A stretch of 64,000 bases of DNA from an uncultured bacterium (GTDB lineage Bacteria > Bacillota_I > Bacilli_A > RFN20 > CAG-826): assembly GCA_949299395.1 (NCBI GenBank), contig CASGAB010000001.1:8365-72364 (forward strand), given 5' to 3'. Positions within the stretch are counted from its first letter, which is position 1; each line of letters begins with the position of its first letter. Under the pieces are notes generated by a model that had not been told where the DNA came from, ran no database searches, and worked only from the letters and a program-made list of their open reading frames with translations. The translations under genes and the position numbers were made by a program. Shown here in pieces: positions 3,393 to 48,762 of the stretch.

Positions 3393-3419
3393 TTATAAAC
3401 GTAAATATTATACACTAAT

Positions 3420-4379: not shown

Positions 4380-4381
4380 TT

Positions 4382-5314: not shown

Positions 5315-5318
5315 TTTT

Positions 5319-7183: not shown

Positions 7184-7673
7184 AAATTTTTATTCCATTT
7201 TTTAATATTTCATTTAGAATATCATAATCTTTTAAACAATCTTTAAAATCTAGTAAATCTACCCTTTTATGAAGTCCCACTCTAAAAGCTTCGATTAACC
7301 CGAAATATTCTAATCCATCCAGATTACCACTATAAGCTAAATCAACATCACTTCCTTCTTTTTGATAACCTTTCGCATAGCTTCCAAATAGATATACACA
7401 TTGAATTTTTCCTTTAAACTCTTTACTCTCACAAATTTTGGTAACGGTTTCTTTGATAAAATCCAAAGTTAATATTCCCTTTTCTTCATTAACTTCGTAT
7501 TTTTCCTTTAATAACTCTAAAAATTTAATTCTTTTTAGATTATTCCCATATTGTTCATCATTTTCATAACGAACATATGTTCTTAAAGGAATAGATAAAA
7601 AATCAGCTACTTCTTTTTGCGATAAATTAAGATTTTCTCTAGTTTTTTTAAGATTATTAAATTCAAATTCCAT
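7176..7673 (-). CDS. mntA: MntA-like minimal nucleotidyltransferase fused to an N-terminal XRE HTH domain; antitoxin partner of HepT
   Basis: N-terminus is an HTH_3 ('LSQKEVADFLSIPLRTYVRYEN'). C-terminus is a nucleotidyltransferase with 'VYLFGSYAKGYQKEGSDVDLAY' (GS...DxD). Its stop overlaps the hepT start. Confidence 0.65.
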   Translation of the reverse strand: MEFEFNNLKKTRENLNLSQKEVADFLSIPLRTYVRYENDEQYGNNLKRIKFLELLKEKYEVNEEKGILTLDFIKETVTKICESKEFKGKIQCVYLFGSYAKGYQKEGSDVDLAYSGNLDGLEYFGLIEAFRVGLHKRVDLLDFKDCLKDYDILNEILKNGIKIYG

Positions 7674-7835: not shown

Positions 7836-7868
7836 AAATTAAAAAGCCTCCTTATATACAAGAAGGCT
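7836..7868 (-). terminator. Intrinsic terminator for the 5'-nucleotidase gene
   Basis: On the minus strand, a 9-bp stem AGCCUUCUU/AAGGAGGCU (one G-U pair) with loop GUAUAU is followed by UUUUUAAUUUUU. It lies about 30 nt after the stop of the 7897..9336 gene. Confidence 0.45.
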
Positions 7869-7896: not shown

Positions 7897-9336
7897 TTAA
7901 ATATTTATAAATCCTTCAGTTTTTAATGTTTCTGCTACAATATTTCTAGCTAAAACATTAGTTGTAATAACTTCTTCTGCTAAACTTGAAGAACCTGGTT
8001 TATATGCAACATAATCAATTGTTGCTAGATAAAATTTATTATTATGAGTAACAGGAGGATTTGCTCTAACTACGTTTTCTTGACCATTTAAAAACATTGA
8101 ATATAAAGAAGGATCAAATTTCATTAAACATAACATATTTTCAAATGGATATACTTTTAAAAGATCTCCATAAGTAAAATCTCCTGCTACAATGTTACTT
8201 CTTATTCCTCCACTATTAACACTTCCGCTATCACAAGGAATAGCAATATCCTCATTATTAGTAGCATATTTCATTAAAGAATAAGAAATAAATCGAGCAA
8301 ATTCACCTTTTGAAACATTTGTTTCAAAAGTATATAAAACTTCATCTCTAACACTTTCAATATCTTCTCTATAAGTTTCATATAGTTCATCTATTTTAGA
8401 TGAACTATCTTTAAATATAGTATCTTTATTATTAAAAGTATTAATATTTTTTGCTTCACTAGAAATTACTTCATATCTATTAGTTTTTTCATTTAATTTT
8501 AAATCTAAAGAAATATGAGAAAGATATTCTCCTAAAGTAGAACCTTCTACATATGGTACTTTATTATTCTTTTCATCTAAATATCCTTCTTTTAAATCAT
8601 GATCATGACCTAAAAATAAAGCATCAATATAATTGACTAATTCTAAATAATAAGAATAATTTCCATCGTGAGATGATAAAACTACTACATCACAGTTTTC
8701 TTTATTTTTTAATCTTTCTGCTTCTTTTTTAATTAATTCTATACTTGAATCAAATATAAAATCATCCGCAATAGTTGCTAAAATATCGTCTCCAATATTA
8801 GGCATAATTGAACCAATTATGCCTACTTTAATACCTTCTTTTTTAACTATAGTAGATGGAGTTAAAAAAGAAGGTATTTTATTATCACTAGCATTAAAAA
8901 TATTAATACCTAAAAGTGGAAAATCCATTTTTTCTTTCATTTTCTCAAGTTTTTCTATTCCCCAATCAAATTCATGATTACCAATAGTCATTGAATCAAA
9001 ACCTATTAGGTTCATTGATTCAATGACTATTTCTCCATAAGTAAGATTAGATTCTGCTCCACCTTGAAACATATCTCCACTAGAAAGAATAAAAGTATTA
9101 TCAAAGTCTTTTTCTTTTTGATTTATTAAATAGTTTCCTATTTTAGATAATCCAACTTGTTCATAACTTTCATCATAAAGGTATGCTCCATGGAAATCAT
9201 TTAAAGCATAAAAATTTAAAGTTCTTTCATCTACCTTAACTCCTAAATCTTCGTTATTTTGGTTATTACAGGAAGCAATAGTTAATAATGAAAGTAAAAA
9301 GACAGTTGTATTTAATATTATTTTTTTAAGTTTCAT
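7897..9336 (-). CDS. Surface lipoprotein, bifunctional metallophosphatase/5'-nucleotidase family (UshA-like)
   Basis: Lipobox 'TIASCNN'. Metallophosphoesterase motifs 'NDFHG', 'SSGDMFQGG', 'GNHEFD', 'GHDHD'. The length fits a phosphatase domain plus a 5'-nucleotidase C-terminal domain. Confidence 0.7.
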   Translation of the reverse strand: MKLKKIILNTTVFLLSLLTIASCNNQNNEDLGVKVDERTLNFYALNDFHGAYLYDESYEQVGLSKIGNYLINQKEKDFDNTFILSSGDMFQGGAESNLTYGEIVIESMNLIGFDSMTIGNHEFDWGIEKLEKMKEKMDFPLLGINIFNASDNKIPSFLTPSTIVKKEGIKVGIIGSIMPNIGDDILATIADDFIFDSSIELIKKEAERLKNKENCDVVVLSSHDGNYSYYLELVNYIDALFLGHDHDLKEGYLDEKNNKVPYVEGSTLGEYLSHISLDLKLNEKTNRYEVISSEAKNINTFNNKDTIFKDSSSKIDELYETYREDIESVRDEVLYTFETNVSKGEFARFISYSLMKYATNNEDIAIPCDSGSVNSGGIRSNIVAGDFTYGDLLKVYPFENMLCLMKFDPSLYSMFLNGQENVVRANPPVTHNNKFYLATIDYVAYKPGSSSLAEEVITTNVLARNIVAETLKTEGFINI

Positions 9337-9390
9337 ATTTTTAATTTATCCCATTATTATGCATATTTTATCGTAGTTAGCCTTTATAGT

Positions 9391-9422
9391 CAAAAAAGAG
9401 TATGGCTCTTCACCATACTCTC
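9391..9422 (-). terminator. Intrinsic terminator after the Big_2/OB lipoprotein gene
   Basis: Stem AGAGTATGG/CCATACTCT with a 7-nt loop. On the minus strand it is followed by a TTTTTTG run. It lies 33 nt downstream of the 9455 stop. Confidence 0.5.
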
Positions 9423-9454
9423 CTTTGTTTGTTTGTTACTATCTATTAGATAGA

Positions 9455-11641
9455 TTAAGCTTTTCTAACGTTATCAATAACTAATTGGACTGTTCCGTTA
9501 TAGTCACTTCTAACACATTCGAAGGTAATCTTATCACCTGGCTTAAGATCTTTAGTAACTTCGTTTGTTAAGAAGTCTTTTGGATTTCCCATTGAATATT
9601 TCCAACTATCATTATAGTTGAATGAAATAGCAGTTGAAGCTGTTGCACCGTAAGCAAAGACTTCTCCATCAATAGATTCATCTTTTAAGTAAAGATTACC
9701 ATATTGATCAGGTTCTTCACCTTTAAATCTTGAAATTTCAGCAGTAACTTCATAGACATATTGTGAAGTCATACCATCAACAGGTCCTTTGATAACATCA
9801 GCTAATGTAGCTTTTGTAGCTGTTGATCTTTCATCGTTAAGTGAAGTTAAAACACCTTGAATTTCTTTTGTTTCTTTATAGTCAGCTCTAATAGCAACCA
9901 TTGTGACAATATCACCAACTTTAATACCTTTAGTTAATGGGTTATCTAATGCATTTTTAGGATTTTCAAATACATATTCTCCTGTAGCTGCATCAAATGT
10001 TAAAGCATCGTATTCAGCAGTAATACCGTAAACTAAAATTTCTTTTGATGGATCGTTTTCATCTTCAAGAATGAGATTACCATATTTAGTAACATCAGAA
10101 TCATCACCATATTGACCTAAAGCTTTAACTTTACCTCTAACAACATAAGCTTGTGTTGTGTTATTTTGAGCTTCTAAGATTTCTGAAACGCTTGCTTTAA
10201 CATAAGCTGGCTCACCTTGTCTTTCACTACAGTCTAATGTGACAACACCGATTGCACCGCTTTCTGTAGTAACACTGATTGTAACAGCACCTTCAGAAAT
10301 ACCTGTAACGACACCATTTTGATCGACAGTAGCAACTGATGTATCTGATGAACTCCATGTGAATACTGGATTTTCTTCGCCTTCAACTGTAGCTTTTAAT
10401 GGTAATGTAGAACCAACAAATAAATTACCTGTATATGTAATAGTTGCAGCTTTTGCTTCAACGTATGGTTCGTTAACGACTTCACAGCCTTCTGTAGAAA
10501 CAAACATTAATGCACTTTCACCACTAACAGCTATCATATCAGTATTTCCTGTTCCTGGATCAAGATTGTATGTTTTTCTTTGTGATTGCATACCAGTGAA
10601 GTTAATTGTTTTTTCGCCGTTTGAATCTAAAGCTTCTTTAAACATATCATAAAGGTCTAATTTGCCTTGTTGATCGTGGTTATATCTATCAGCGTAAACA
10701 TAGACTTCAGAACCTTTATATAAAACTTTTGCCTCTAAGAAGTCATCTTCTGTAACTTTTCCGTTATAGCTATTATCGTAAAGATTAACTTCTAAGACTT
10801 TAGCACCACTAATTGTTGATAATGAAGCGTATGTAGCTGGAGACATAAAGCCTGGGTGATTTAATTCAGAAACAGTAGGTTTTTCTACACCTTCAACATC
10901 TTTTCCACTTAAAATTGTGATAACAGCTTTACTACCAGTAATTTGTCTTGTGCTGTTGTATGGTGATGACTCACCAGAAACTTCAATACAATCACCAACT
11001 TTTAATCCGTTTGGAACGTTTTTCTTTGGAATATCATAAATCATAAAGCCGTAATTTCCAGCTTGAACAAGAATTCCATACCAGTTATCTGGGTCTGTAT
11101 CTGGGATAAATGATGTAACATAGCCTTGAACAGCACAAGTAACACCTTTGCCTGGCATATCTTTAATAGGAACGATATTTTTATTACTATTAATATCAAC
11201 ATTAAATTTTAATGATGCAGTAGCATTATTCAATTTTGCTGTACCTGTGATAGTTGTTGATTTAACTGTACCAAATTCACCCCAAACTGGGTTTAATTGT
11301 AAATATGATGAACCATTTGCTTCAACAGTTTCACTTGTGAATAATGTTGAATCAAAATCCCAATCAACAACAACATCAAATGTATTGCCGCTATCTGTTA
11401 AATAGCTGTAATTTGTTTGAGCAATAATGTAGTGAGCTGCCTTTTGTTCAATATTATTTTTAAGACCATATGATTCATCTCTAATAGGAGCTTTGACACT
11501 ATTTGTTAAAACTGCAGCAGAAGAGATAACAGCTTTACAGATTTCTTCATCAGTCATTGTTTCGTTAGTAGCTGGAGCACAAGCACTAACAAGTGCTGTA
11601 GCACTTAATGCAAAAGCGATTAATAATTTAGTTTTTTTCAT
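9455..11641 (-). CDS. Surface lipoprotein with a Big_2 Ig-like domain and three repeated OB-fold-like modules, a putative nucleic-acid-binding accessory protein
   Basis: Lipobox 'LVSACAP'. Big_2-like 'TWSSSDTSVATVDQNGVVTGISEGAVTISVTTESG'. Three repeats of the pattern '...V.G.V....YGN(L/Y).L.DE.....(I/V).VYG'. The same OB-like module occurs at the C-terminus of the adjacent nuclease. Confidence 0.5.
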   Translation of the reverse strand: MKKTKLLIAFALSATALVSACAPATNETMTDEEICKAVISSAAVLTNSVKAPIRDESYGLKNNIEQKAAHYIIAQTNYSYLTDSGNTFDVVVDWDFDSTLFTSETVEANGSSYLQLNPVWGEFGTVKSTTITGTAKLNNATASLKFNVDINSNKNIVPIKDMPGKGVTCAVQGYVTSFIPDTDPDNWYGILVQAGNYGFMIYDIPKKNVPNGLKVGDCIEVSGESSPYNSTRQITGSKAVITILSGKDVEGVEKPTVSELNHPGFMSPATYASLSTISGAKVLEVNLYDNSYNGKVTEDDFLEAKVLYKGSEVYVYADRYNHDQQGKLDLYDMFKEALDSNGEKTINFTGMQSQRKTYNLDPGTGNTDMIAVSGESALMFVSTEGCEVVNEPYVEAKAATITYTGNLFVGSTLPLKATVEGEENPVFTWSSSDTSVATVDQNGVVTGISEGAVTISVTTESGAIGVVTLDCSERQGEPAYVKASVSEILEAQNNTTQAYVVRGKVKALGQYGDDSDVTKYGNLILEDENDPSKEILVYGITAEYDALTFDAATGEYVFENPKNALDNPLTKGIKVGDIVTMVAIRADYKETKEIQGVLTSLNDERSTATKATLADVIKGPVDGMTSQYVYEVTAEISRFKGEEPDQYGNLYLKDESIDGEVFAYGATASTAISFNYNDSWKYSMGNPKDFLTNEVTKDLKPGDKITFECVRSDYNGTVQLVIDNVRKA

Positions 11642-11660
11642 ATTATTTTTAATTTCCTCC

Positions 11661-13070
11661 CTAATTAATATGTTCGCTTACATAGTTTTTATATTCGGTT
11701 GCTTTGAACGAAGGGAATTCAACTTGATATTCACCGTCTGCGTCTTCATTATATTGGAAGACTCCAAGCATAACCTTAACGTCGTAACTCTTACCTCTTT
11801 CAAAAACAGATGCAATTGTACTCAAACTGCTAAAGAAAGTGTGAGATTCAAAACGTATATTTAATTTAATATTGTTACAAGTTGCATGAACAGTGAAAAC
11901 ATTATTTACAACATCTTTTTCTGACTGATAAATATAGTCTTCACTATCTTCAATATCAATGGTTGTAGATATGAAGTTTCCAGCATATGGATCATAGGAA
12001 GATGTTGAAGTAATAGTTTTTGGATCCATATAAACTGGATCAACATTATAGGTATAACCTAAAGCTTCAGCTTCTTCTTTTGATGAGGCTAAAATTTCAA
12101 AAGGATAATGGTCATCACGAATACGAACGTCAGTTAATTGGAAATTACCATAATATTTTGTGATTTTTGCATAGAATCTAACGATATCACCAACTTTTGC
12201 GCCTGTATTTTTATATAAAGTAAATACAAAAATTGAAGCAGGAACAATGTCTTCATCGCTAGGATTTACGTCTCTAATATATAAATCACTTCCGCTAACA
12301 CCAATAACTTGTCCGGTAATTCTTAATTGTTTACCACTACTTCCTGTTGAATCATTAACTCCTAAAGTGTCGAAATTTGCTTTCGCATTAGAAATTGTTG
12401 TTTCAACTACTTCTCCACTTGAATCAAAATCACAATCTTTTTCACCATTAACTCTTCTACCTTCAGCTGCTTTTTGAGCTTCTTGGAAAGCTTCAAAATA
12501 ACCATCTAAAATGGAAGAATTTTGATTTAAATAGTTACGTGAATAGCCTTGTTCAACGATTTCTAAATTTAATAATCTAAAATCATCGCCTTCTTCAGGT
12601 TGATACCAAACAAAGCCCATATATCTTCCACCACTAGAATCATATTTTTCAAACATATCTAAATCGTTTAAAACAACGATTCTATTTGCGGTAGTAAGTT
12701 TTGATTTTGTAAAGTGAGAAGCTTTGATACCCCGTTCTTGGATAGCTCCTGTTGATTCAGGAGTATCAATAGCTTCATATCTAAATCTAAATCTTCTAGC
12801 GGTATTATCATCACTTGCAGGATAGAAATTTGATGTGTCTCCATCTGTATTTGAAGCGAGTTTAACTTCCATGATTGCTAAGCCGCTAGTAACATTTAAG
12901 AAATTATCGCTTGGAATACTAGCTTCATTAGCAAACTTAAAAGCATCTGTAACGGGAGTTGCATATTCTTCTGTTGACCCACAAACATCTTGTTTTTCTC
13001 CACACGAAGAAACTGCAAGGGTTGTAAATAAACCTAATACTAAGTATCTAAATAATTTCTTAAATTTCAT
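11661..13070 (-). CDS. Secreted/surface lipoprotein nuclease of the staphylococcal-nuclease (thermonuclease) family with a C-terminal OB-fold-like module
   Basis: Lipobox 'AVSSCGE'. SNase core 'GDTSNFYPASDDNTARRFRFRYEAIDTPES...KASHFTKSKL' (compare 'GDT...R(L)IGIDTPE'). C-terminal 'LRITGQVIGVSGSDLYIRDV...YYGNFQLTD'. Confidence 0.7.
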   Translation of the reverse strand: MKFKKLFRYLVLGLFTTLAVSSCGEKQDVCGSTEEYATPVTDAFKFANEASIPSDNFLNVTSGLAIMEVKLASNTDGDTSNFYPASDDNTARRFRFRYEAIDTPESTGAIQERGIKASHFTKSKLTTANRIVVLNDLDMFEKYDSSGGRYMGFVWYQPEEGDDFRLLNLEIVEQGYSRNYLNQNSSILDGYFEAFQEAQKAAEGRRVNGEKDCDFDSSGEVVETTISNAKANFDTLGVNDSTGSSGKQLRITGQVIGVSGSDLYIRDVNPSDEDIVPASIFVFTLYKNTGAKVGDIVRFYAKITKYYGNFQLTDVRIRDDHYPFEILASSKEEAEALGYTYNVDPVYMDPKTITSTSSYDPYAGNFISTTIDIEDSEDYIYQSEKDVVNNVFTVHATCNNIKLNIRFESHTFFSSLSTIASVFERGKSYDVKVMLGVFQYNEDADGEYQVEFPSFKATEYKNYVSEHIN

Positions 13071-13107
13071 AATCTTTTATCTCGATTTATAAACAATAAA
13101 CACTTAA

Positions 13108-14646
13108 TTAAGCAGGAATATTATTTGGATTTAATTTATAGAATTCATCAAGAATTGCTTCCCATGTAGCATCGCTAGCAGCTTCTTCTGAAGAAACGTC
13201 TCTACATCTAGCCATGATACCACCAACGTTGTTTCTGATTGATGATGAACCAACGAAACCTGGATCAACGTATTGTGTCCAACCAACATTACCTTGATAA
13301 ACATCGAAGTTAATTAAGACTGCGTCTCTCATGGTTTTTGATGTACCTTTTAATGTTGTATCGTTTAAATAATCTTGATAAACAGTTGATTCATATGCAT
13401 CTGTTGTAACTGGGATATAGCCAGTATTTTTAGCAAATGTAGCATTTGTTGTTGGATCATATGTTAATGTTTTTAAAAGTTCAAATGTTGCAGCTCTATT
13501 TTCTTCATCTGCGTTTCTGAACATAACTAAGTTAGTACCTTGAGAAATAACATATTTATTTTCAGGTTTATCAGCATTGAATGGAACTGGATTAACTTCT
13601 ACTTCGAAAGCGTCACCTGCTGGAACACAGTTACTAACACCTGCTGAAGAACCGATTGTAAAGACTGTTTTATAAGCCTTGAATGGCGTAGATGTATAAC
13701 TTGTTTCACCAAATGAAGCTGGAATAGCCATGATGCCTTCATTGAATAATCTGTTGAAGAATTTTAACATTTCAACAGTTTCAGCACTCTTATAGTGCAT
13801 ATAACCTTGTGTTTTACCGTTTGGTAAAGATTCAACTGTTGTATATGTTCCACCCCATTGTCTAACCATTGTAATAAAGAAGTTAGCTTGTGAGTCATAT
13901 GAACAGACATAGAAATCATTTTCACCAACTTTTGTTAAATCAATAGCAACTTCAACACCTGCATCTGCAGCAGCTTTTGAGTCGTTATAAACGACACCAT
14001 CAGTACCAATAACTTTGTTGAAAGCACCTTTTTCTTTTAAAACTTTTCTTGTTGCGAGACCAAATTTTTCAACTTCTTGCCATGTTGTAGGAACACCAGT
14101 GATTTTATCATCACCTTCTGCTGTTTCTGTCATTTTAATTAAGACTTCAACGAAAGTTTGGTTTGTAGTCATAACTTCAGTTGATTTATTGAATGGTAAA
14201 CCCATGACTCTATCTGGAACGATTTCAAGGTTTTCTTGTAAATAGTTGTCATAGAATTTGTCTAAATCCATACCATCAGCTTCGATAGTTGAAGTTAAAT
14301 CAAATAAAATACCTGATTCACTATATTGAGCCATGTGGTCTGGATAAGCAACAGCTAATTGTGGGTAAGTTCTTGTTGAAACTGAACCAACGATTGCAGC
14401 AAGTAAGTTATCATAACCACCTTGTCCAGTATGAACAATGTCATAACCTTCATGATTTGCTTCATAATCGGTTAAGATGTTTTCTAATTGGGTGGTCATT
14501 GATTCGCCAAAACCAGTCCAAACATTAATTGTAGTAGCACCACTTGCTTCTTGACCACAGCCGGTTAAGCCGAGTAAGCCAACAAATGGGACAGCAACTA
14601 ACAACTTAATTTTTCTGTTCATTAATAATTTCCTCCCTTTGAACAA
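13108..14646 (-). CDS. ABC transporter substrate-binding lipoprotein (family 1/CUT1), paralog of the 1872..3392 product
   Basis: Lipobox 'LTGCGQE'. Paralog-level similarity to the other binding protein ('PQLAVAYPDH' versus 'PSLAVCYPDY'). Confidence 0.8.
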   Translation of the reverse strand: MFKGRKLLMNRKIKLLVAVPFVGLLGLTGCGQEASGATTINVWTGFGESMTTQLENILTDYEANHEGYDIVHTGQGGYDNLLAAIVGSVSTRTYPQLAVAYPDHMAQYSESGILFDLTSTIEADGMDLDKFYDNYLQENLEIVPDRVMGLPFNKSTEVMTTNQTFVEVLIKMTETAEGDDKITGVPTTWQEVEKFGLATRKVLKEKGAFNKVIGTDGVVYNDSKAAADAGVEVAIDLTKVGENDFYVCSYDSQANFFITMVRQWGGTYTTVESLPNGKTQGYMHYKSAETVEMLKFFNRLFNEGIMAIPASFGETSYTSTPFKAYKTVFTIGSSAGVSNCVPAGDAFEVEVNPVPFNADKPENKYVISQGTNLVMFRNADEENRAATFELLKTLTYDPTTNATFAKNTGYIPVTTDAYESTVYQDYLNDTTLKGTSKTMRDAVLINFDVYQGNVGWTQYVDPGFVGSSSIRNNVGGIMARCRDVSSEEAASDATWEAILDEFYKLNPNNIPA

Positions 14647-14679
14647 ACTTTTAATCTATCTAATATGCGTAACGCATTA

Positions 14680-15729
14680 TTAGCCCTTAATACCACTTCT
14701 TGAGACACCTCTCATAATATACTTATGGAAGAATATAAAGAGGATAAAGAGTGGAAGTGTAACGACAACGGATCCAGCCATTTTACCTGGTTGGTTATCG
14801 CTAAATTCTGAAGAGAATGAAGCCATTAATCCGTTTGAAACTAATCTAATATCGTAATTATCTCCGAAGATAATGGAGTGTTGCATTCTGCCGTTAGCAA
14901 CAAGTTGAGGCCAAACGTATGCGTTCCATCCACCCATCAAGGAGAGAATGATAATAGTAACAATAGTTGGCATACCAATAGGAACCATAACTCTTAAAAG
15001 ATATTTCCAATCAGTATAACCATCGACTTTTGCAGCTAAATATAATTCATTTGGAATTTGTTGGAATGTTTGTCTTAAATAGAAAATATAGAAGACGCTA
15101 ACACCATGGACTAAAATTAAAGCTGCGAATGTATTTTCCCAACCGAATTCTTTAACTAAAGCATAGTTAGTAATAACCATCATTTCGCCAGGAATCATCA
15201 TGGTTGCTAAGATAATTAAGAATAATAAGTTTTTACCTTTGAAATTTAATCTAGCAAAAGCAAATGCTGCTAAAACTGATGTAATAACTGTAACAAGCAT
15301 TCCACCTGCCGAAGAAATAAATGTATTTAAGAAATAAATCCAGAAAGATGTTTTTTCTTGAACAATACCTAAATTATCAACATATGTAGGAGCGAAAACC
15401 GATACATAATTTTCCATTGTAAATGGAATTGGCAATAAGGTAATTGTGTTATTCGACTTATTCATTTCAAAAGTTTGTTGAGAAATAAATGAAGTTGAAA
15501 TCATGAATAAGAATGGTAAAAGAATGAAAATAGCAAAAACGATTAAAAAAGCATACATCAAAGATTGAGAAATAATTAATTTTGGTAAATATGATTTTCC
15601 AACGTGATAACCTTCACTATTAGCTTTACCTTTTCTTTCTAAACGATAATTTTCGCTTTCTGCGAGTTTTTGATTACCACTTTCTAAGTAGGCTTGTAAT
15701 TCTAATTCACTTTTAATAGCTTTTTTCAT
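14680..15729 (-). CDS. ABC sugar transporter permease (MalG/UgpE-like) with an N-terminal extension
   Basis: EAA region 'ELYLAAKVDGYTDWKYLLRVMVP'. It is a paralog of the 3420..4379 product. Confidence 0.8.
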   Translation of the reverse strand: MKKAIKSELELQAYLESGNQKLAESENYRLERKGKANSEGYHVGKSYLPKLIISQSLMYAFLIVFAIFILLPFLFMISTSFISQQTFEMNKSNNTITLLPIPFTMENYVSVFAPTYVDNLGIVQEKTSFWIYFLNTFISSAGGMLVTVITSVLAAFAFARLNFKGKNLLFLIILATMMIPGEMMVITNYALVKEFGWENTFAALILVHGVSVFYIFYLRQTFQQIPNELYLAAKVDGYTDWKYLLRVMVPIGMPTIVTIIILSLMGGWNAYVWPQLVANGRMQHSIIFGDNYDIRLVSNGLMASFSSEFSDNQPGKMAGSVVVTLPLFILFIFFHKYIMRGVSRSGIKG

Positions 15730-15743
15730 AAATTACTACCTCC

Positions 15744-16976
15744 TTAATAGTGGACTCTCTTCTTACTTACAGCAAATTGAACTGCGGTAATAAGAAGAAT
15801 GACACATAAAAGAACGATACTTCCTGCGGCTGCATAGCCAGGATTAAGTGGATTAATTTGTTTCATATCTCTATAAAGATAACCGACAACTGTAATCCAT
15901 TCGACACCTTGATATCCACCGAAGAAATAGTTGTTTTGTGAAATATAAATCGATCTAACATCGGTATACATTTTAAATGCACCAATGAATGATGTGATTG
16001 TGATATATAAAATTTGAGGAGAAAGGAGAGGGACTGTAATCTTTCTAAAGATTTTTCCACCTTTTGCTCCATCAATTCTAGCTGCATCGTAATATTGTTT
16101 ATCAATAGTTGATAAGCCAGAAAGGAAGACTAAAATCTTAAATGCCATTTGATTCCAAACTGAATAAGTAACAATAACTACTGCTTGTGCCCATCTTGGT
16201 GCACCTTCTGTGACCCATTGTTGATTTAAACCAAAGAGGGTATTAATTAAACCACCACCAACTGCACCATTTGTATAGCTTGAGAAGATAAGGTTAAAAA
16301 CCATACCTAAAGCGATAGTATTGGTAACATATGGAAGGAAGAAAACAGTTTGAAAAAATCCCTTTAAAAACTTAATTCTATGTATGAAATAAGCAATTAA
16401 AAGGGATACAAAAATTGTAAGTGGGACTTCTAAAATAACAAGTTCGAAAGTATTCCATAAACTCTTAATGAATAATGAGGTAGGAATAGTTTGACCAAAA
16501 AGTACGATAGAATAGCTAGTATTGCTAAATAAATAGGTGAAATTTCCAAAACCAAAAGTTGTTGGATAAGGAGCTTCAGTACAAACAATACCGCTTCCAC
16601 CAACAGAACTCATGTCTTCACAAATAACTGAGTTACCTTTAATGATGTTTGCAATAGAAAAAGATCCAGCACCATCAACCCAAGTAAAATCTTCAGTAAA
16701 TGCGATAACAAAGCTGTTAAAAATTGGATAAATCATGAATAAACAAATCAAAATAAAGGCTGGAATTAAAACCAAGAAAGCCAATAAATTTTGATTCATA
16801 TGGAATTTTCTTTTTTTGGTTTCTAAAGGACGATGAATGTCAAATTTACATGTTCCATCTTCATTGTAATAATAAGATTCTTCGTGTCCTCTATGTCTTA
16901 AACGAATAGAGATGTTTTCGAAAGTATCTTTACATCTTTGAAGGAACTTTTTTTCACTTTTCGCTTCGTTTTTCAT
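15744..16976 (-). CDS. ABC sugar transporter permease (MalF/UgpA-like) with an N-terminal cytoplasmic extension
   Basis: EAA region 'YYDAARIDGAKGGKIFRKITVPLL'. It is a paralog of the 4382..5314 product. Confidence 0.8.
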   Translation of the reverse strand: MKNEAKSEKKFLQRCKDTFENISIRLRHRGHEESYYYNEDGTCKFDIHRPLETKKRKFHMNQNLLAFLVLIPAFILICLFMIYPIFNSFVIAFTEDFTWVDGAGSFSIANIIKGNSVICEDMSSVGGSGIVCTEAPYPTTFGFGNFTYLFSNTSYSIVLFGQTIPTSLFIKSLWNTFELVILEVPLTIFVSLLIAYFIHRIKFLKGFFQTVFFLPYVTNTIALGMVFNLIFSSYTNGAVGGGLINTLFGLNQQWVTEGAPRWAQAVVIVTYSVWNQMAFKILVFLSGLSTIDKQYYDAARIDGAKGGKIFRKITVPLLSPQILYITITSFIGAFKMYTDVRSIYISQNNYFFGGYQGVEWITVVGYLYRDMKQINPLNPGYAAAGSIVLLCVILLITAVQFAVSKKRVHY

Positions 16977-16996
16977 ATTAAATTACCTTTTAAGAA

Positions 16997-18781
16997 TTAG
17001 AAAATTCTTTCTCCAGTTTCTTCAAATACGTAAATTCTCTTAGCTGAGAAATTAAGATATTCATTTCCTTCACATTCTTTTGCGAGTTCAGAAGAAATAA
17101 TAATTTTAACGTGTCCTTCTTCTACTCCAACGACATCTCCAACAACGGAAATATCTCTACCAATATGTTCAATATTGAAGACTTTAACTTGGATAGGACC
17201 GTTTGGATCTAAAGCAAAATGTTCTGCTCTAATACCAACTTTAACAGTTCTTGTTGGGTTTAATCTTGATTCTAATGAAGCAATAATTCTTTGAACTCTA
17301 TCTTTTGCTTCATCTGTTTGAACACCATTTGAATTTCTTAAGATTTCAATTTGGTGATCTTTAATAGCTTTTGTTCCTTCCCAATCACTTGAAGCATATA
17401 ATTCTTCAATTTGATGAGCATAAGGAATAACTTCAAGAGAAACTTTAGCTTTTTTAGCAAGTTTTTTAACAGTTTTGAATCCAGCTGGTGATGATGCGTT
17501 TTCAACAGCGTCTAATTCATGTAAAACTGCTTCAACTAATGCTTTTTCTTCATCATTATGAGTTTCTACTCTATTAACAAGCATTTTTCCTCTTGCAATA
17601 GCTACTTTATCTTTAACTTCGATAACTTTCTTATTTAATTCTTCTTCACTTGCGTTAAGTAAGACACTAACTTCATTATTAAAGACATCAATAACAGATT
17701 GATCATCATATTTAGTTAAATAGCTCTTAGCATCTTTTAAAGCTTTTCTAACTTCTTTTCTATCTGTAGTAGGTAATACAACATTTGTATAGCAATCAAA
17801 TGTTGGTAAAGATTCTAATAATTCTTTTTCTTTAGCTTTTTGTTCTTTTTTAGAAATAAAATCGTTTGTACCAGAAATAATGTTTGTACCACAAGCATTA
17901 CAATATTTACCATTATGTGAAACAACATTACCACAGTTTGGACAAATAACTTCTTCAATGTGAACTCTATTTAGTGCTTCATCATAGAAAACTTCTTTTT
18001 CAGCAACAAATAATTTACCGTTTTCAACTCTTCCATCAAAAACGTTAATTGCAGGAGTTCCTAAGAACTTAGCAACAAAGAGGTTTGCTGGTTCTTCATA
18101 AACTTTTTGAGGTTCATCTTTTTGTTGAACAATACCATCTTTCATAACAACAATAAAGTCAGAAATTGACATAGCTTCTTCTTGGTCGTGTGTAACAAAG
18201 ATAGTTGTAATTCCTGTTTCTTTTTGAATTCTTTTAATTTCTTCTCTAGTTTGAAGTCTTAATCTAGCATCTAAGTTAGATAAAGGTTCATCTAAAAGAA
18301 GAACTCTAGGTCTTTTTGCTAAAGCTCTAGCGATAGCAACACGTTGTTGTTGACCACCAGAAAGTTCTTTTGGTTTTCTATCTAATAATTTTTCAATATT
18401 AACAATTTTTGCGTTTTCTAAAGCGATTGCGCATTTTTCATCAAATGTGAGCTTTGGAACAACGTTATCTAAAGGGAACATAATGTTTTGTCTAACGTTG
18501 AAATGAGGATAAAGTGCATAGTTTTGGAAAACTAATCCGATTCCACGATTTTCTGGTGGAACATTTGTAACATCTTCGTTTCCAAAGAAGACTTTTCCTT
18601 CAGTGACGGTATGAATACCGGCAATCATATAAAGGGTTGTAGATTTACCACAACCAGAAGGACCTAAAAGACCACAAAGTTTTCCATCTGGGATGTCAAA
18701 AGTCATATTATTAACAGCGACTGTCTTAGCACCTTTCTTTCCTTCAAAAGTTTTAACGAGGTTTTGAATCTTTACTTCCAT
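16997..18781 (-). CDS. ABC transporter ATP-binding protein (MalK/UgpC-like) with a ~270-aa insertion, including a CxxC...CxxC zinc ribbon, inside the C-terminal regulatory domain
   Basis: Walker A 'GPSGCGKST', signature 'LSGGQQQRVAIARAL', Walker B 'LLLDEPLSNLD'. The regulatory domain is interrupted by 'CPNCGNVVSHNGKYCNACG' plus about 250 residues before it resumes 'VKVGIRAEHFAL...'. Confidence 0.85.
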   Translation of the reverse strand: MEVKIQNLVKTFEGKKGAKTVAVNNMTFDIPDGKLCGLLGPSGCGKSTTLYMIAGIHTVTEGKVFFGNEDVTNVPPENRGIGLVFQNYALYPHFNVRQNIMFPLDNVVPKLTFDEKCAIALENAKIVNIEKLLDRKPKELSGGQQQRVAIARALAKRPRVLLLDEPLSNLDARLRLQTREEIKRIQKETGITTIFVTHDQEEAMSISDFIVVMKDGIVQQKDEPQKVYEEPANLFVAKFLGTPAINVFDGRVENGKLFVAEKEVFYDEALNRVHIEEVICPNCGNVVSHNGKYCNACGTNIISGTNDFISKKEQKAKEKELLESLPTFDCYTNVVLPTTDRKEVRKALKDAKSYLTKYDDQSVIDVFNNEVSVLLNASEEELNKKVIEVKDKVAIARGKMLVNRVETHNDEEKALVEAVLHELDAVENASSPAGFKTVKKLAKKAKVSLEVIPYAHQIEELYASSDWEGTKAIKDHQIEILRNSNGVQTDEAKDRVQRIIASLESRLNPTRTVKVGIRAEHFALDPNGPIQVKVFNIEHIGRDISVVGDVVGVEEGHVKIIISSELAKECEGNEYLNFSAKRIYVFEETGERIF

Positions 18782-18917: not shown

Positions 18918-20126
18918 TTAATCATTTTTTCCTTCATTATTATCGATATTTTCTAAATTTTGATTAATAACAATATTTTCATCTTTTTTAAAAGAATTTG
19001 TTCTTTCTTCAATTTGCGCCATTAATTTTTCTTCAGTTTCACGATTTAAGAACCAAACACTATTCTTTGTGTCGATTACTTTTGTTAAAGAAATTAAATC
19101 ACTTAAAGAAGTATGATTCTTAGTAAAAATTATTAATGCAAAATCAATTAAATAGAATAATCCTAAAGAAAAATAACCTGCAAAAGCTTCAGCACTAATA
19201 AATAAATATTTAGTTAATATCTGTAATTTAGATACTTGATAATCTTTATTATTCACTAATGCTAAATGCATCATTCTATTAGATATAGTTTGACCATTTT
19301 TTGATAATAACGGTATTATCAAAAAATAGATTATTAGAGCTATTCCTAAAGATACATATAAAGAGTATCTACCAACTCTTTCTAATTCAGTATAAATAGA
19401 ATAATAATTATCTGTATCTCTTAAATAAAAACATGCTTGATGATAACTTCCTGGATAAGATTCAGTATCTGCAAAAATTCTAATATATGCTCTTATATAA
19501 TTTTGATTTTCTGGTGAAGAAAATGGTTTATTTGGGTTTTTTTCATAGATAACACTGCTATAAGTAACTTTATCTAAAATACCAATATTAGAAGAAACAA
19601 CTTCTCCTTTTTCATCAAATGTTAATGGATCACTATATTTATCACCATTAATGATATAAAAAGCTTCAAAATTAGGATATTCTTCGTTATCAATGTTACA
19701 AACATTTTTATAAAACCAAGCATTAAGCTCTTCTTTTGTTGGATCTTTTTCAAAAATAATGCCATAAGAATCAATTTCATCTAAATAAACATAATAAAAG
19801 TTATAAAGCATTTTTAAAAAGACCATGTGAGAGTCTTCATAAGTAAAATAACCATTTTCATCAGTTAGTTTTTCTGCCGAAATATAATTAACTTCACTTA
19901 AAGGTGGTTGACCTAGCTTTGTATCATCAAAAAATAATCCACTATCAACTTGAATTTGTTTAATTTCATTTAATTTTTGAGGAATACGAAAACCATAATC
20001 GATATATCCTTCAACAGTTGGAAGATAAGTAATTGCAACTAAAAAAAGGATAAATAATAAATCTAATAAAAATCCAAAAGCTCTTTTTCCTAAAGAACCA
20101 AGATGAATATCACTAATCTTCTCCAT
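18918..20126 (-). CDS. RDD-family membrane protein with a large inserted soluble domain (paralog D of four)
   Basis: N-terminal 'GKRAFGFLLDLLFILFLV' matches the RDD signature (R...D) followed by a TM helix. A Y/D/E/N-rich domain of about 230 aa follows. C-terminal RDD core 'SKNGQTISNRMMHLALVNNKDY' and TM helices. The start overlaps the upstream paralog by 14 nt. Confidence 0.55.
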   Translation of the reverse strand: MEKISDIHLGSLGKRAFGFLLDLLFILFLVAITYLPTVEGYIDYGFRIPQKLNEIKQIQVDSGLFFDDTKLGQPPLSEVNYISAEKLTDENGYFTYEDSHMVFLKMLYNFYYVYLDEIDSYGIIFEKDPTKEELNAWFYKNVCNIDNEEYPNFEAFYIINGDKYSDPLTFDEKGEVVSSNIGILDKVTYSSVIYEKNPNKPFSSPENQNYIRAYIRIFADTESYPGSYHQACFYLRDTDNYYSIYTELERVGRYSLYVSLGIALIIYFLIIPLLSKNGQTISNRMMHLALVNNKDYQVSKLQILTKYLFISAEAFAGYFSLGLFYLIDFALIIFTKNHTSLSDLISLTKVIDTKNSVWFLNRETEEKLMAQIEERTNSFKKDENIVINQNLENIDNNEGKND

Positions 20127-21108
20127 TTTCTTGATCTGCCTCTAATTCTTCTAAATTTTCATAGATTGTTGATTCTTTCGTGTTACAAACTCTAGAAAAA
20201 GAAATTAAATCTAAAATCGATGCATTTTCTCTATTCATTAAAGTTGCTAACCAGTTAAAAAGGAAGAAAGCTCCATAAATTGGTGCAAGAACAAAGATAT
20301 TATCTTCAATCAAAATGATACAAAGTAAAATAATTGTTGGAATATTTCTAATTAAAAAGAAATATCTTTTTTGATAAATTCCATCTTTTGAAACTAAACC
20401 AACCTTTGTTAAGAATCTTCCTAAAGTAAATCCATATTTATTAGTAAGTGGAGGAATTGCAAAAACTAAAACATAAGGGATGATTGCAGAACAAAAAATA
20501 CGATAAACTCCCTTATTTATAACGCTTTCTCTAGCTATCGAATAAAAATTATCTTTATATAAATCAGAATAAATTTCTCGGTAATGGCGAGAATAAAAAA
20601 CCATTAAATTATTTTTTGCTTCAATTGTTAAAGTTCCGTTTTCACGATCATTCTCGGTATAATTCTCTTCTTTTAAAATACCTAATTTATTTTCATCGAT
20701 ATTATTATTTTCATCGTATTGATATTCAAAATAGGTGTAATCGGTGCCTAATTCTAAGATTTTTGTATTATATTCTTTAATTGTATAAGGTTTTCTATCT
20801 CCACTATTTTCTTTATAAAATTCACTACCAAAATATTTATCGGTTAAATAATATGTTTCAACTACTTCTTTATAATCTTCATAATCACTTGAATGTAATT
20901 GTTGATAATATCCATTTTTATCTTTAACTAATAACCCACTTTCTACTTGAGCAGTAGCAATTAAATTATCTTCGGCTTGAGAATCAAAAGTATATCTAAA
21001 AACAAAAGATGATAAAACAAAAAACAAGACTCCAAAAAGGAAGAAATCAATTAAGACTCCTAAGAAACGGAATGACATTTTTGAATAAGCTACTTTTTTG
21101 TTGATCAT
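20113..21108 (-). CDS. RDD-family membrane protein with an inserted soluble domain (paralog C)
   Basis: 'FRFLGVLIDFFLFGVLFF' and a C-terminal canonical RDD core 'KYGFTLGRFLTKVGLVSKDGIYQKRYFFLIRNI'. A conserved post-TM motif 'VESGLL' is shared with the other paralogs. Confidence 0.6.
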   Translation of the reverse strand: MINKKVAYSKMSFRFLGVLIDFFLFGVLFFVLSSFVFRYTFDSQAEDNLIATAQVESGLLVKDKNGYYQQLHSSDYEDYKEVVETYYLTDKYFGSEFYKENSGDRKPYTIKEYNTKILELGTDYTYFEYQYDENNNIDENKLGILKEENYTENDRENGTLTIEAKNNLMVFYSRHYREIYSDLYKDNFYSIARESVINKGVYRIFCSAIIPYVLVFAIPPLTNKYGFTLGRFLTKVGLVSKDGIYQKRYFFLIRNIPTIILLCIILIEDNIFVLAPIYGAFFLFNWLATLMNRENASILDLISFSRVCNTKESTIYENLEELEADQENGED

Positions 21109-21152: not shown

Positions 21153-22109
21153 TTAATTACTATTTTTCTTCTTTTCAAAATAATATTCTTCATAATCTAA
21201 ATAAAACTTATTACTTTCATTCATCAAAGAATAAGTTTTAGACATATATTCATTAAAATTCTGTTTGTTTTTAGATATAAACATCATTCCAACACTAAAA
21301 ATAAACGGAATTCCAATAGTAAAAATAGATAGAATAACTTCAATTAAAAAGAACCATAAAAACTTAATAAAAAAATCTTTTTTAGTTAAACATAATCCTT
21401 TTTCATTTAAAGACCCAAATCTAAATATTAGTTTTCCTAAACTTTTATTTCCTCTTTTAAAAATAAGTGGAAATAAAAGATAGAAAACTAATATTGAAAC
21501 TATAAATGAGATTAAAACTATTAGAAGTTGAACAATAAAAATATTAATACTTTCTTTTAAATAAATAGAAGATTGAGTTAAATAAGCTAATGCATTGTTA
21601 TCAATTAAATAAGTATAAAATTTAATAAAATCACCATCTAAAACGTCTTCTTTTTCAATATAAATGTTATTTTCTTTATCAAAAACAAAATAATCTAAAC
21701 CATATTCTTCAATAAATGAATTTAAAATATCTCTTCCTTCGTTTTCTTTTTCGCTATATGAATTAAGTTCGATATAAAAATAATTAGCTCTCTCACTTAA
21801 TTCTTTCTTTTTAACTTCATTAGTTAAGTCTTTATTATCTAAGGAATAATATGAAGAAATCGCAATTAAATCACTATTTTGTTTAACAAAAAGTTTAGAT
21901 TCTAAGCAAACATTTTCAATATTATTAATCGAAGTTTTATAAAAACTGGTTTCTTGATAAACAAGAAGAGATAATAAAACTAAGATAATTGTTAAAAGAA
22001 TTGTCGAAAAAAGATCGATTAATCCAGCAAAAAATCTCTTATATAAAGGGACTTCCTGATAACTTAATTCAATAGTATTGTTATTTTTTTCCAAAACTTC
22101 TTGATTCAT
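21153..22109 (-). CDS. RDD-family membrane protein with an inserted soluble domain (paralog B)
   Basis: 'KRFFAGLIDLFSTILLTIIL' is a classic RDD N-terminus. 'KRGNKSLGKLIFRFGSLNEKG' is the RDD core. Multiple TM helices. Confidence 0.6.
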   Translation of the reverse strand: MNQEVLEKNNNTIELSYQEVPLYKRFFAGLIDLFSTILLTIILVLLSLLVYQETSFYKTSINNIENVCLESKLFVKQNSDLIAISSYYSLDNKDLTNEVKKKELSERANYFYIELNSYSEKENEGRDILNSFIEEYGLDYFVFDKENNIYIEKEDVLDGDFIKFYTYLIDNNALAYLTQSSIYLKESINIFIVQLLIVLISFIVSILVFYLLFPLIFKRGNKSLGKLIFRFGSLNEKGLCLTKKDFFIKFLWFFLIEVILSIFTIGIPFIFSVGMMFISKNKQNFNEYMSKTYSLMNESNKFYLDYEEYYFEKKKNSN

Positions 22110-22124
22110 AGAAATAATTATAAA

Positions 22125-23324
22125 TTATTTTTTTTCTTTCTCGGTTTCTTTGTCTTCGATAATAAAATCTTCACCATTTTTAATTTCTTCATTAGAAACA
22201 AGATTTAAAAGGGATAATCTTTTTTTAGTAAATGGAATTGTAACCATATTAAATAATACGAGAATTATCGAGAAAATTGATACATTCAATATGCTAAATA
22301 AGCCAATAAATAGCATCTGACTATATGAAGGGAAGAATAAAAGAGTAAAAATTAGAGAGACGAAAAGACCTGATAAAAATAACAAAGAAAATTTAGCTAA
22401 ATAATTTAAAAAAGTAAGATTTTTGTTAGTTCTTCGATTATTTCCAACAATTTTAAACATTTTCATCATAAATGTTTGATCTTTTTTAAATATTAAAATA
22501 GGTAAACCAAAATATATTAAGAAAGAAAAAACATAAGAAATAATCATTTCAATAATTAAATAATTGTAATAATCATAATTTAATTGTTCAAAAGCTACAA
22601 AATTAGGGAAATAATTTTTATCATTTGTCTCAAAATCTTTGATAAGTGAATAATAAAAATTAAGATAATCATCATAATATTCATTATAAAGATCTGTATA
22701 ATCGGTCGAATAATCTTCTTCAAAAACATATTTTGCTAAATCTAAAGCAACTTCTTCTTTTAAAACAAATCTTCCTGTTTCGAAGTAATTTTCCTTATAA
22801 TAATCAGCTAAAAATTGATTAAAAGAATTAACAATTCTCTCATTGCTTAAACTTTCATTATCATCTAAAAGGTTGTCTAAGCGATATTCAAAAACATAAT
22901 AATTGATATTTTCTTCGCTATATTCATTAAAAACTTCATAATTTTCATGAATTGAGCCTTTGAAATCATAATTTATATCAGCTAAATAGGTTTTTAAAGA
23001 TCTTCTAACTTCTTTATAAACAACACCGTTTAAACTTAAGAGTTCTTTATCTTCGTTCATCTCTAAAAGACCAGAATCTACCCCGTTTTGATATAATTCA
23101 CTTCTTTTTTCGTTAATTTTAATAATTTTATCATTTACAACAGATACTAAATTACCTAAAGGATAGGCGATTACTCCATTAATAAGTGAAAAAAATATAA
23201 AAAATAATGCTAAATCTAATAAAAAGACTAAAAATCTTTTACCTAATTTAGTTTTTGAATTTTTTGAATAATCTATATCTTTGTTATTAATATTTTTTTT
23301 AGATATTGAAAAAATATTTTTCAT
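22125..23324 (-). CDS. RDD-family membrane protein with an inserted soluble domain (paralog A)
   Basis: 'GKRFLVFLLDLALFFIFFSL', 'VDSGLL', and 3-4 C-terminal TM helices. It starts 3 nt after the stop of the SIR2-like gene. Confidence 0.55.
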   Translation of the reverse strand: MKNIFSISKKNINNKDIDYSKNSKTKLGKRFLVFLLDLALFFIFFSLINGVIAYPLGNLVSVVNDKIIKINEKRSELYQNGVDSGLLEMNEDKELLSLNGVVYKEVRRSLKTYLADINYDFKGSIHENYEVFNEYSEENINYYVFEYRLDNLLDDNESLSNERIVNSFNQFLADYYKENYFETGRFVLKEEVALDLAKYVFEEDYSTDYTDLYNEYYDDYLNFYYSLIKDFETNDKNYFPNFVAFEQLNYDYYNYLIIEMIISYVFSFLIYFGLPILIFKKDQTFMMKMFKIVGNNRRTNKNLTFLNYLAKFSLLFLSGLFVSLIFTLLFFPSYSQMLFIGLFSILNVSIFSIILVLFNMVTIPFTKKRLSLLNLVSNEEIKNGEDFIIEDKETEKEKK

Positions 23325-48652: not shown

Positions 48653-48687
48653 AACCGCGTTAAAATATGACGCGGTTTTTTATTTTA
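48653..48687 (+). terminator. Intrinsic terminator after the ABC exporter operon
   Basis: AACCGCGT-taaaatatg-ACGCGGTT followed by TTTTTTATTTT. Confidence 0.65.
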
Positions 48688-48762
48688 AGAATAATTAATT
48701 ATTCTTGTCTCTTTTTTCATCAAGTCTCATTCATTATAATTATTTTTAGTTATAGATTTTTT

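Follow-up and report, generated by a model that had tools for sequence, protein, structure and literature searches.

A row of ABC importer, surface nuclease and nucleotidase genes in an uncultured gut member of the Bacilli, a probable operon for feeding on extracellular nucleic acids

Why should the gene for a surface nuclease stand directly behind those of an ATP-binding cassette (ABC) importer, and what would such an importer carry? The question is raised by a 64,000-nt stretch of DNA (hereafter the window; contig CASGAB010000001.1 of assembly GCA_949299395.1, positions 8,365 to 72,364), a chromosomal segment of ~27% GC from an uncultured, Mollicutes-like gut member of the Bacilli. Seven open reading frames (ORFs), all on the minus strand, run here from an ATPase gene that starts at 18781 to a nucleotidase gene that ends at 7897. 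In order, they encode an ATPase, two permeases, a substrate-binding lipoprotein, a nuclease with the staphylococcal nuclease (SNase) fold, a lipoprotein with OB-fold repeats and a Big_2 domain, and a UshA-family metallophosphatase/5'-nucleotidase. An earlier examination made from the letters alone (the sequence-only reading) had described three consecutive same-strand lipoproteins after CUT1-type ABC genes and had taken the whole for a Mycoplasma-like nucleic-acid scavenging locus. We verified all seven ORFs and their strand, and found lipoboxes in all four extracytoplasmic proteins (LTGC, VSSC, VSAC and IASC). Pfam and NCBIfam searches yielded the family assignments of the row, with Pfam domain matches above the curated cut-offs. 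Synteny, profile assignments and the literature together support the core of that description, and we consider it probable that the row forms a chromosomal operon whose products let the cell feed on extracellular nucleic acids.

We scanned a profile of the nuclease against one genome per GTDB species, which returned at least 557 confirmed relatives, and compared gene order around the best 80 of these together with seven loci on metagenome contigs (87 loci, of which 76 include upstream DNA). The genes for ATPase, permease, permease, binding protein (one or two copies) and nuclease abut one another in this order and on the same strand in 76/76 loci with upstream DNA. These core loci span uncultured Bacilli/Mollicutes, Erysipelotrichaceae, Acholeplasmatales, Candidatus (Ca.) Izimoplasma, Lachnospiraceae, Oscillospiraceae and Christensenellaceae. 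Nucleases of 75-76% identity, the nearest among GTDB species, come from genomes labelled 'uncultured Bacilli bacterium'; more distant nuclease relatives come from genomes labelled Mollicutes, Erysipelotrichaceae, Acholeplasmatales, Ca. Izimoplasma, Anaeroplasma and several Clostridia families, and there is no Mycoplasma among the best 80 of the at least 557 nuclease-profile loci.

Sampling from the other side gave a similar picture. We picked four binding-protein homologues of 37-41% identity on contigs of 0.7-1.5 Mb; all lie in a row of ABC genes preceded by genes for RDD membrane proteins (see below), and in three of the four a confirmed nuclease gene (E 1e-136 to 1e-177 with the nuclease profile) follows the binding-protein genes; the fourth has a 374-aa ORF without a match in the nuclease position. 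The ABC-nuclease linkage is not chance, and the adjacency, which the sequence-only reading had treated as a meaningful unit, proved to be one from whichever gene the loci were sampled. Because the nuclease family comprises 472 clusters at 50% identity (E <= 1e-30), with the relatives in GTDB species counted above, the module may be a common, mis-annotated route of extracellular DNA/RNA recycling in gut and sediment Bacillota.

The nuclease (11661..13070, minus strand; 469 aa) matches the SNase profile PF00565 over residues 95-208 (E 4.2e-8; score 34 bits, cut-off 21). A PDB sequence search with this protein gave nothing at E <= 0.01, and a fold search was used instead. Its AlphaFold2 (AF2) model (pLDDT 83.6) has an SNase domain at ~60-215, a five-stranded OB-like barrel at 248-313 and a second barrel at 366-451, and Foldseek matched it to Staphylococcus aureus nuclease with a TM-score of 0.81-0.83 (normalised to the latter) and an E of 5e-9. 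Residues D78, R97, D102, T103, E105 and R149 align with D21, R35, D40, T41, E43 and R87 of the S. aureus enzyme, and D19-G-D21-T and D40-T-P-E43 of that enzyme have their equivalents too. The columns of DGDT, R97, TPES and R149 are invariant in 18 homologues, as is Cys23 of the signal-peptide lipobox (VSS-C23). The SNase/thermonuclease assignment, which had been set beforehand as a refutation test, passes both the Pfam profile and the structure search. The enzyme is probably Ca2+-dependent, and SNase-type enzymes leave 3'-phosphates, as stated for YhcR (PMC4714964). Metagenome contigs from ENA and Logan encode this protein unchanged, as does one NCBI record.

What the importer carries is best approached through its substrate-binding lipoprotein (504 aa, lipobox LTGC; SBP_bac_8, E 2e-23), a member of the UgpB/dinucleotide-binder branch of CUT1. 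Its gene had been placed at 13108..14646; the gene exists, with a more likely start at the ATG at 14622, preceded by a GGGAGG ribosome-binding site (13108..14622, minus strand). In a PDB sequence search the closest solved chains are those of the 7C0F family (E 1.6e-19), followed by UgpB 9LFF (3.5e-12), with UgpB 6X84 and 4AQ4 also among the solved relatives. The similarity to 7C0F is local, of low identity and confined to two stretches, and the motifs QGGY, PFNKS, (S/T)SAG, QGTNLV and TGY(I/V)PVT are common to the window's protein and this family. According to the main text and supplementary table S5 of PMC12718374, which refer to Chandravanshi et al. 2021, 7C0F is a Thermus thermophilus binder of uridylyl-3'-5'-phosphoguanosine (U3G). 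Two Tyr and two Ser touch the ligand phosphate in UgpB, GPC and U3G binders and do not in sugar binders (PMC12718374). In the window's protein, Y78, S155, S333/S334 and Y410 stand opposite Y, S, S and Y in the alignment with a 7C0F-family chain and would correspond to these published contacts; of 102 family members, 100-102 retain Y78, K154-S155, S333 and Y410.

Because 7C0F and UgpB are its nearest solved relatives and the putative phosphate-contact motif residues are near-invariant, the transporter most likely takes phosphorylated products of the nuclease, rather than nucleosides or sugars. The sequence-only reading had drawn a route that ends in nucleosides beside the transporter; this part needs revision, since the solved proteins that the binding protein is like bind phosphodiesters and dinucleotides, not nucleosides. 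Further, genes for NrnA-like DHH/DHHA1 proteins lie near the module in 15 loci (Ca. Izimoplasma and 14 others, Clostridia included). In Ca. Izimoplasma sp. ZiA1 (locus L070, 14933-20500), downstream of the core come the gene of a giant aBig_2/lamin-tail protein, two NrnA-like genes, whose products have no signal peptides, and genes for a Na/Pi cotransporter-PhoU protein, a response regulator and a PstS-like protein. Cytoplasmic NrnA-like proteins encoded near the module therefore fit the import of short phosphorylated oligonucleotides.

The remaining importer genes, all on the minus strand, complete a CUT1 system (TC 3.A.1.1): the binding protein belongs to SBP family 1/8, both permeases are of the BPD_transp_1 type, and the ATPase, of the MalK/UgpC type, carries an OB domain in its C-terminal part. 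The permeases are UgpA/MalF-like (15744..16976, 410 aa; BPD_transp_1 6.8e-15, UgpA 2e-17) and UgpE/MalG-like (14680..15729, 349 aa; BPD_transp_1 7.8e-20, UgpE 5.9e-23). The UgpC/MalK-type ATPase (16997..18781, 594 aa; ABC_tran 1.7e-35; UgpC-like 3.4e-98 over residues 2-261) has a ~230-aa insert inside its C-terminal regulatory OB domain, with zinc-ribbon matches at 276-301 and OB_MalK resuming at 499-522. Among called relatives the ATPase ranges from 456 to 653 aa, depending on lineage. The interrupting stretch, residues ~265-500, consists of a Cys4 zinc ribbon (CPNCG...CNACG) and a ~200-aa helical insert. About 1 kb downstream of the row lies a second, paralogous CUT1 operon (operon A; 1872-6785, minus strand) of the same order, encoding an ATPase of 488 aa, two permeases and a binding protein of 506 aa (1872-3392) that has weak matches to sugar binders only. 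The operon A ATPase carries a ~120-aa insert of its own, within the nucleotide-binding domain (residues ~116 to 234). Operon A also stands directly after the nucleotidase gene in L008 and L009, two relatives of 75% identity.

The protein encoded after the nuclease (9455..11641, minus strand; 728 aa) matches Big_2 (E 2.7e-10) and gave no match in NCBIfam. Three OB-fold-like repeats had been proposed for it. The AF2 model (pLDDT 83.5) has these barrels at 165-245 (OB1), 481-601 (OB3) and 610-727 (OB4) and adds a fourth, with a helix, at 270-385; an N-terminal beta domain and Big_2 (395-472) make up the rest. OB3 and OB4 share 32% identity (E 4e-15), a clear duplication. Searched with the whole 728-aa model, Foldseek returned tandem-OB DNA binders at probability 1.0 (p204 HINab-dsDNA at 2.6e-8, RPA and Ifi202 HINa), at whole-chain TM-scores that are low for this many-domain query and with many Ig-repeat proteins also matched. 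The OB profile PF01336 is matched by 4/8 family members (best E 1.1e-5), the window's protein reaching only E 0.028. This lipoprotein is a probable nucleic-acid capture protein. That it shares an OB module with the nuclease, as had been claimed, is weakly supported: BLASTP gives a non-significant E of 0.28, and hhalign pairs nuclease residues 221-314 with residues 608-722 of the Big_2 protein at a moderate level (probability 68%, E 4.7e-5). Across loci, the gene abutting that of the nuclease carries N-domain and/or OB modules in 49/78 cases, Clostridia and Acholeplasmatales included, and OB-module partners measure 157 to 1712 aa. Judged by these domain-wise profiles, an OB-type partner is a common and plastic component of the module.

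Upstream of the ATPase gene lies a second set of genes, which formed no part of the locus as first described. RDD family membrane proteins 1 (18918..20126, 402 aa; PF06271 4.1e-12, 47 bits), 2 (20113..21108, 331 aa; 1.7e-6, 28.8 bits) and 3 (21153..22109, 318 aa; 1.3e-8, 35.6 bits) are all encoded on the minus strand and exceed the PF06271 cut-off of 24.1 bits; the gene for protein 1 lies 136 nt upstream of the ATPase gene, and that for protein 2 overlaps the next gene by 14 nt. A fourth product (22125..23324, minus strand; 399 aa) has no Pfam match. It resembles its three adjacent paralogues in motif and topology, with KRFLVFLLDL in an N-terminal first transmembrane segment (TM1), a ~210-aa loop and C-terminal transmembrane segments, and its gene probably belongs to the unit. 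All four products have a TM1 with an R..D motif, a loop of 150-220 aa and further transmembrane segments (in protein 1, a ~220-aa loop and two segments), and the large loop is predicted to be extracytoplasmic. A (V/L)(D/E)SGL(F/L) motif in this loop is common to the four tandem products. RDD genes stand directly upstream of the ATPase gene in 50/67 loci with enough upstream DNA and in 4/4 loci found by way of the binding protein; loci without them are mostly from Acholeplasmatales and Izemoplasmatales, where the operon follows dnaX-recR (L044, L047, L054, L070). We know of no established function for the RDD family. The sole precedent we met in the literature for an association of RDD proteins with importers is found in Mce importers, whose accessory proteins Mam1B/Mas1B have an RDD domain.

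The last gene of the row encodes the UshA-family metallophosphatase/5'-nucleotidase lipoprotein (7897..9336, minus strand; 479 aa, lipobox IASC). Its Metallophos match (E 5.4e-7, 30.7 bits against a cut-off of 21.5) is accompanied by the motifs DxH, GD, GNHE and GHDH, found in the stretches NDFHG, SGDMFQGG, GNHEFD, SHDG and GHDHD, and its closest solved chains are 3IVD and UshA (3e-22). The protein is ~70 aa shorter than UshA. In NCBIfam, CpdB (~1e-21) ranks below both the 5'-nucleotidase portion of YfkN-type enzymes (2.4e-41) and UshA-like proteins (1.5e-39), a ranking that is only a hint of 5'- over 3'-specificity. Some relatives add a gene of the Endonuclease_1 (EndA/NucM) type and a second nucleotidase gene (L004, 14370-16001; L007, 1-1986), and the accessory enzyme set is therefore modular.

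How might these components work together? The OB-repeat lipoprotein and the OB-like domains of the nuclease would keep DNA or RNA bound to the cell surface, where the SNase-type lipoprotein, probably with Ca2+, would cut it to mono-, di- and short oligonucleotides. The UgpB/U3G-like binding lipoprotein would capture the small phosphate-bearing products for the UgpA/E-like permeases, which the long UgpC/MalK-like ATPase would power. Alongside, the UshA-family lipoprotein would dephosphorylate mononucleotides, leaving nucleosides and phosphate to other carriers, and the two to four upstream RDD membrane proteins are probably accessory membrane partners.

The same genes could be read as serving phosphate supply, through a Ugp-type importer for glycerol-3-phosphate or glycerophosphodiesters whose nuclease and nucleotidase neighbours are adjacent since all of them harvest phosphate; the nuclease products would then not be its ligand. 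This would accord with the NCBIfam best matches of the four ABC components, which are UgpC, UgpA, UgpE and UgpB, with the UgpB structures among the solved relatives of the binding protein, and with the Ca. Izimoplasma locus that runs into phosphate-related genes; Bacillus subtilis YhcR, too, reclaims extracellular DNA for phosphate (PMC11458576). However, the Ugp matches all fall far under the equivalog cut-offs (UgpB 53.5 vs 411 bits), and the score of the best UgpB is seven orders of magnitude poorer than that of the dinucleotide binder 7C0F. The strict abutment of nuclease and binding-protein genes over phylum-level distances exceeds what a shared regulon needs, and NrnA-like genes lie nearby in the 15 loci, so that we judge a phosphate-scavenging importer unlikely. 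Alternatively, the importer could be an ordinary CUT1 system for sugars or oligosaccharides, with the three lipoproteins forming an independent module that clears extracellular DNA from biofilms, host traps or competitors. Homologues of the binding protein (P0264-P0357) are indeed publicly annotated as 'multiple sugar transport system substrate-binding protein', the paralogous CUT1 operon 1 kb downstream has a sugar-binder-like binding protein, and mycoplasma SNase lipoproteins have been studied mostly as cytotoxins and as factors that degrade neutrophil extracellular traps (PMC9740415). Yet the ABC-nuclease order holds in all loci with upstream DNA, those of free-living sediment Izemoplasmatales included, the conserved set is devoid of glycoside hydrolases, and the binding protein has residues that probably match phosphate contacts lacking in sugar binders (PMC12718374). 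Given this neighbourhood and residue pattern, the 'multiple sugar transport' naming of nuclease-linked binding proteins is probably a systematic mis-annotation, and a sugar importer with an unrelated DNA-clearing module appears decidedly improbable.

One might also ask whether unrelated transcription units stand side by side here by accident, the genome being compact. The 118-nt gap before the nucleotidase gene lends this some colour: it holds a weaker hairpin with a T-run (9421-9397, minus strand) and, after it, a promoter-like TTGACT-17-TAAAAT (9393-9365, minus strand), both consensus matches of putative function, promoter-like matches being common in AT-rich DNA. Between the ATPase and OB protein genes, by contrast, the gaps measure 14-57 nt, and no intergenic terminator was found within 18781-9455. 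The only strong terminator-like intergenic hairpin of the row comes after its last gene, 29 nt past the nucleotidase stop codon (7845..7868, minus strand; 10-bp stem and TTTTAATTTT), and promoter-like matches are rarer than expected (84 vs 108 +/- 10 in shuffled sequence). We infer that the row, the nucleotidase gene perhaps excepted, is co-transcribed. Synteny over 80 or more loci contradicts an accident for the ABC-nuclease-OB core, so that the nucleotidase gene alone remains for it, and as an account of the whole row it is hardly credible.

Several points nevertheless weigh against a nucleic-acid feeding operon of the kind proposed here. Its ligand, product chemistry, co-transcription and protein contacts are all deduced from sequence. 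The loci were found by way of the nuclease or the binding protein, and many of the lineages are kin, so the counts, although they cover both Bacilli and Clostridia, are not independent events. The binding protein resembles glycerol-3-phosphate binders too, and its ligand could be a glycerophosphodiester; the public naming of its homologues as sugar binders also counts against the proposal. The likeness to mycoplasma operons described below is one of gene content and published descriptions, also in the pairing of MslA with the OB/Big_2 protein. The other points concern the nucleotidase. Its 5_nucleotid_C match (E 3.3e-7; 31 vs 23.6 bits) covers only profile positions 24-76 of 158. SNase products would carry 3'-phosphates, whereas the phosphatase is nearest to 5'-nucleotidases; of the 'complete route' from DNA or RNA over nucleotides to nucleosides that the sequence-only reading had drawn, the enzymes are present and the chemistry is not self-evident. 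A surface 5'-nucleotidase of Mycoplasma bovis is reported to be active on both 5'- and 3'-nucleotides (PMC11729948), which would resolve the mismatch. Further, the nucleotidase gene is almost confined to the closest clade (L003, L004, L006, L008-L012, L022), L083 having one as well, there upstream of the ATPase gene. Because the 118-nt gap before it has a hairpin with a T-run and a promoter-like site, the gene may be transcribed separately or be partly independent. The nucleotidase would be a lineage-specific parallel branch that does not feed this transporter.

Which published systems does the locus resemble? In mycoplasmas, the SNase lipoprotein genes Mpn133, MG_186, Mhp379, MAG_5040, MHO_0730 and MbovNase adjoin ABC operons (PMC9740415), for which a role in the uptake of nucleotide precursors is often proposed and unproven (PMC9740415, PMC12115388). 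A putative nucleotide transporter operon of M. bovis, MBOVPG45_0307-0311, has a 2103-bp ATPase gene (0309) and encodes, besides a nuclease lipoprotein, P81/MslA, a lipoprotein that binds DNA (PMC4045577). The literature agrees with the parallel drawn earlier, that of a nuclease lipoprotein beside a UgpC/A/E-like ABC transporter with a long ATPase. As in these operons, and that of MGA_0676 with MslA, the window has the gene for a Ca2+-type SNase-fold lipoprotein beside UgpC/A/E-like ABC genes, and an over-long ATPase; the place of MslA/P81, a large nucleic-acid-binding lipoprotein of the mycoplasma operons, is taken here by the OB/Big_2 lipoprotein, a probable counterpart in function. The order differs: mycoplasmas have the nuclease and MslA genes ahead of the ABC genes, whereas in the window the nuclease and OB genes follow. 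Unlike the mycoplasma operons, the window also has a recognisable CUT1 binding lipoprotein, an attached nucleotidase gene, RDD genes and the standard genetic code. A match to the 'P68 family surface lipoprotein' of NCBIfam (8.4e-14, below cut-off) was considered as a further link and discarded, since P68 is mhp390, which lies outside the mhp379 operon (PMC10213202).

For the DNA-degradation loci of Izemoplasmatales, Wasmund et al. 2021 noted nucleases near homologues of the ABC binding protein and proposed transport of nucleosides or nucleobases (PMC8289736). In Hujiaoplasma nucleasis, DNA plus RNA induces as much as 27-fold a locus that comprises RecR, ABC transporters and an extracellular nuclease (PMC10470597). 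Like the window, these loci cluster extracellular nucleases with an ABC transporter, and the Ca. Izimoplasma locus has the homologous ATPase-permease-permease-binding protein-SNase core. They differ in following dnaX-recR, in lacking RDD genes, and in having the giant lamin-tail/aBig_2 protein, two NrnA-like genes and a phosphate transporter; the window, for its part, has the OB/Big_2 protein and the UshA-type nucleotidase, and a binding protein that points to phosphorylated ligands.

Compared with the Thermus 7C0F protein, the window's binding protein is ~100 aa longer and a lipoprotein, with a ligand that is predicted from its relatives; we know of no nuclease linkage of the Thermus protein. 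B. subtilis YhcR, the subject of Oussenko et al. 2004, reportedly combines OB folds, SNase and metallophosphatase/5'-nucleotidase on one sortase-anchored chain. A non-specific nuclease dependent on Ca2+, it yields 3'-mononucleotides and serves to reclaim extracellular DNA (PMC4714964, PMC11458576). The window would bring the same three domains and activities to the cell surface, split over three lipid-anchored lipoproteins and coupled to an ABC importer, whereas YhcR is anchored by LPXTG and sortase and yhcR is not so coupled; each of the three ORFs has its own lipoprotein signal and no LPXTG, which sets them apart from a YhcR-type single polypeptide. The nucleotidase also resembles M. bovis MBOVPG45_0690, a lipoprotein with Metallophos and 5_nucleotid_C domains that acts after the surface nuclease MnuA, which differs in size (680 aa vs 479 aa) and is encoded beside neither a nuclease nor an ABC operon (PMC11729948).

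By its gene content, the locus is of a published kind, that of the mycoplasma nuclease-ABC operons and the Izemoplasmatales DNA-degradation loci. Its own traits are the different gene order, the recognisable binding protein, YhcR-like domains in the form of three lipoproteins, and the RDD genes. In the literature we did not meet the phylum-wide ABC-binding protein-SNase-OB core, the RDD association or the link to a solved dinucleotide binder. Uptake of nucleotide precursors by Mollicutes and other nucleotide auxotrophs is still argued from gene neighbourhoods, and the ligand of the mycoplasma nuclease-linked ABC transporter was never demonstrated. Here, a conventional binding protein with a solved dinucleotide-binding relative makes the ligand of the transporter directly testable with one recombinant protein. 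A bolder proposal, which we put forward tentatively and regard as rather doubtful, is that the conserved components, namely the RDD proteins, the CUT1 ABC importer with its binding protein, the SNase and the OB protein, form a dedicated machine of Bacillota, perhaps including mycoplasmas. Nucleic acids would be cleaved at the cell surface and the phosphorylated di- or oligonucleotides imported intact, with the RDD proteins as obligatory membrane subunits and cytoplasmic NrnA finishing the products. If true, the long-postulated route by which Mollicutes take up nucleotides would gain a molecular identity and the RDD family its first function, and hundreds of 'multiple sugar transporter' annotations would be wrong.

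The rest of the window is of housekeeping character (YidC, Jag, MnmE, KsgA, Pth, Mfd, TilS, FtsH, Dus, LysRS), and an Rfam scan of the whole window found no riboswitch and no other RNA family. Its 48 genes end in TAA (39), TAG (8) and TGA (1); long ORFs under table 11 without in-frame TGA rule out genetic code 4 and indicate the standard code, with TGA nearly avoided as a stop. A competence-like role in DNA uptake was dismissed, there being no ComEA/ComEC-like gene in the window or in the conserved set.

Two neighbours of the module recall defence systems. A 432-aa protein with a C-terminal SIR2_2 domain (23328-24626, minus strand), which PADLOC matches weakly to ThsA of Thoeris (7.9e-9), is encoded by a gene that ends 3 nt before the first RDD-like gene, and may be a defence gene or unrelated. 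On the other side, between the two ABC operons, the stretch 6833-7673 holds the gene for an HTH-MntA-like nucleotidyltransferase antitoxin (7176-7673, minus strand) followed by a HepT-like toxin broken into ORFs of 36 and 67 aa. This remnant is absent from L008 and L009 and is therefore a recent, decayed insertion. We considered whether these flanks mark a mobile or defence island and rejected it in view of the housekeeping surroundings, the synteny of the module in distant genomes and the absence of the toxin-antitoxin remnant from the relatives of 75% identity. Farther along the window, a 1143-aa ORF (48667-52098, plus strand) has a C-terminal VanZ-like domain as its sole Pfam match.

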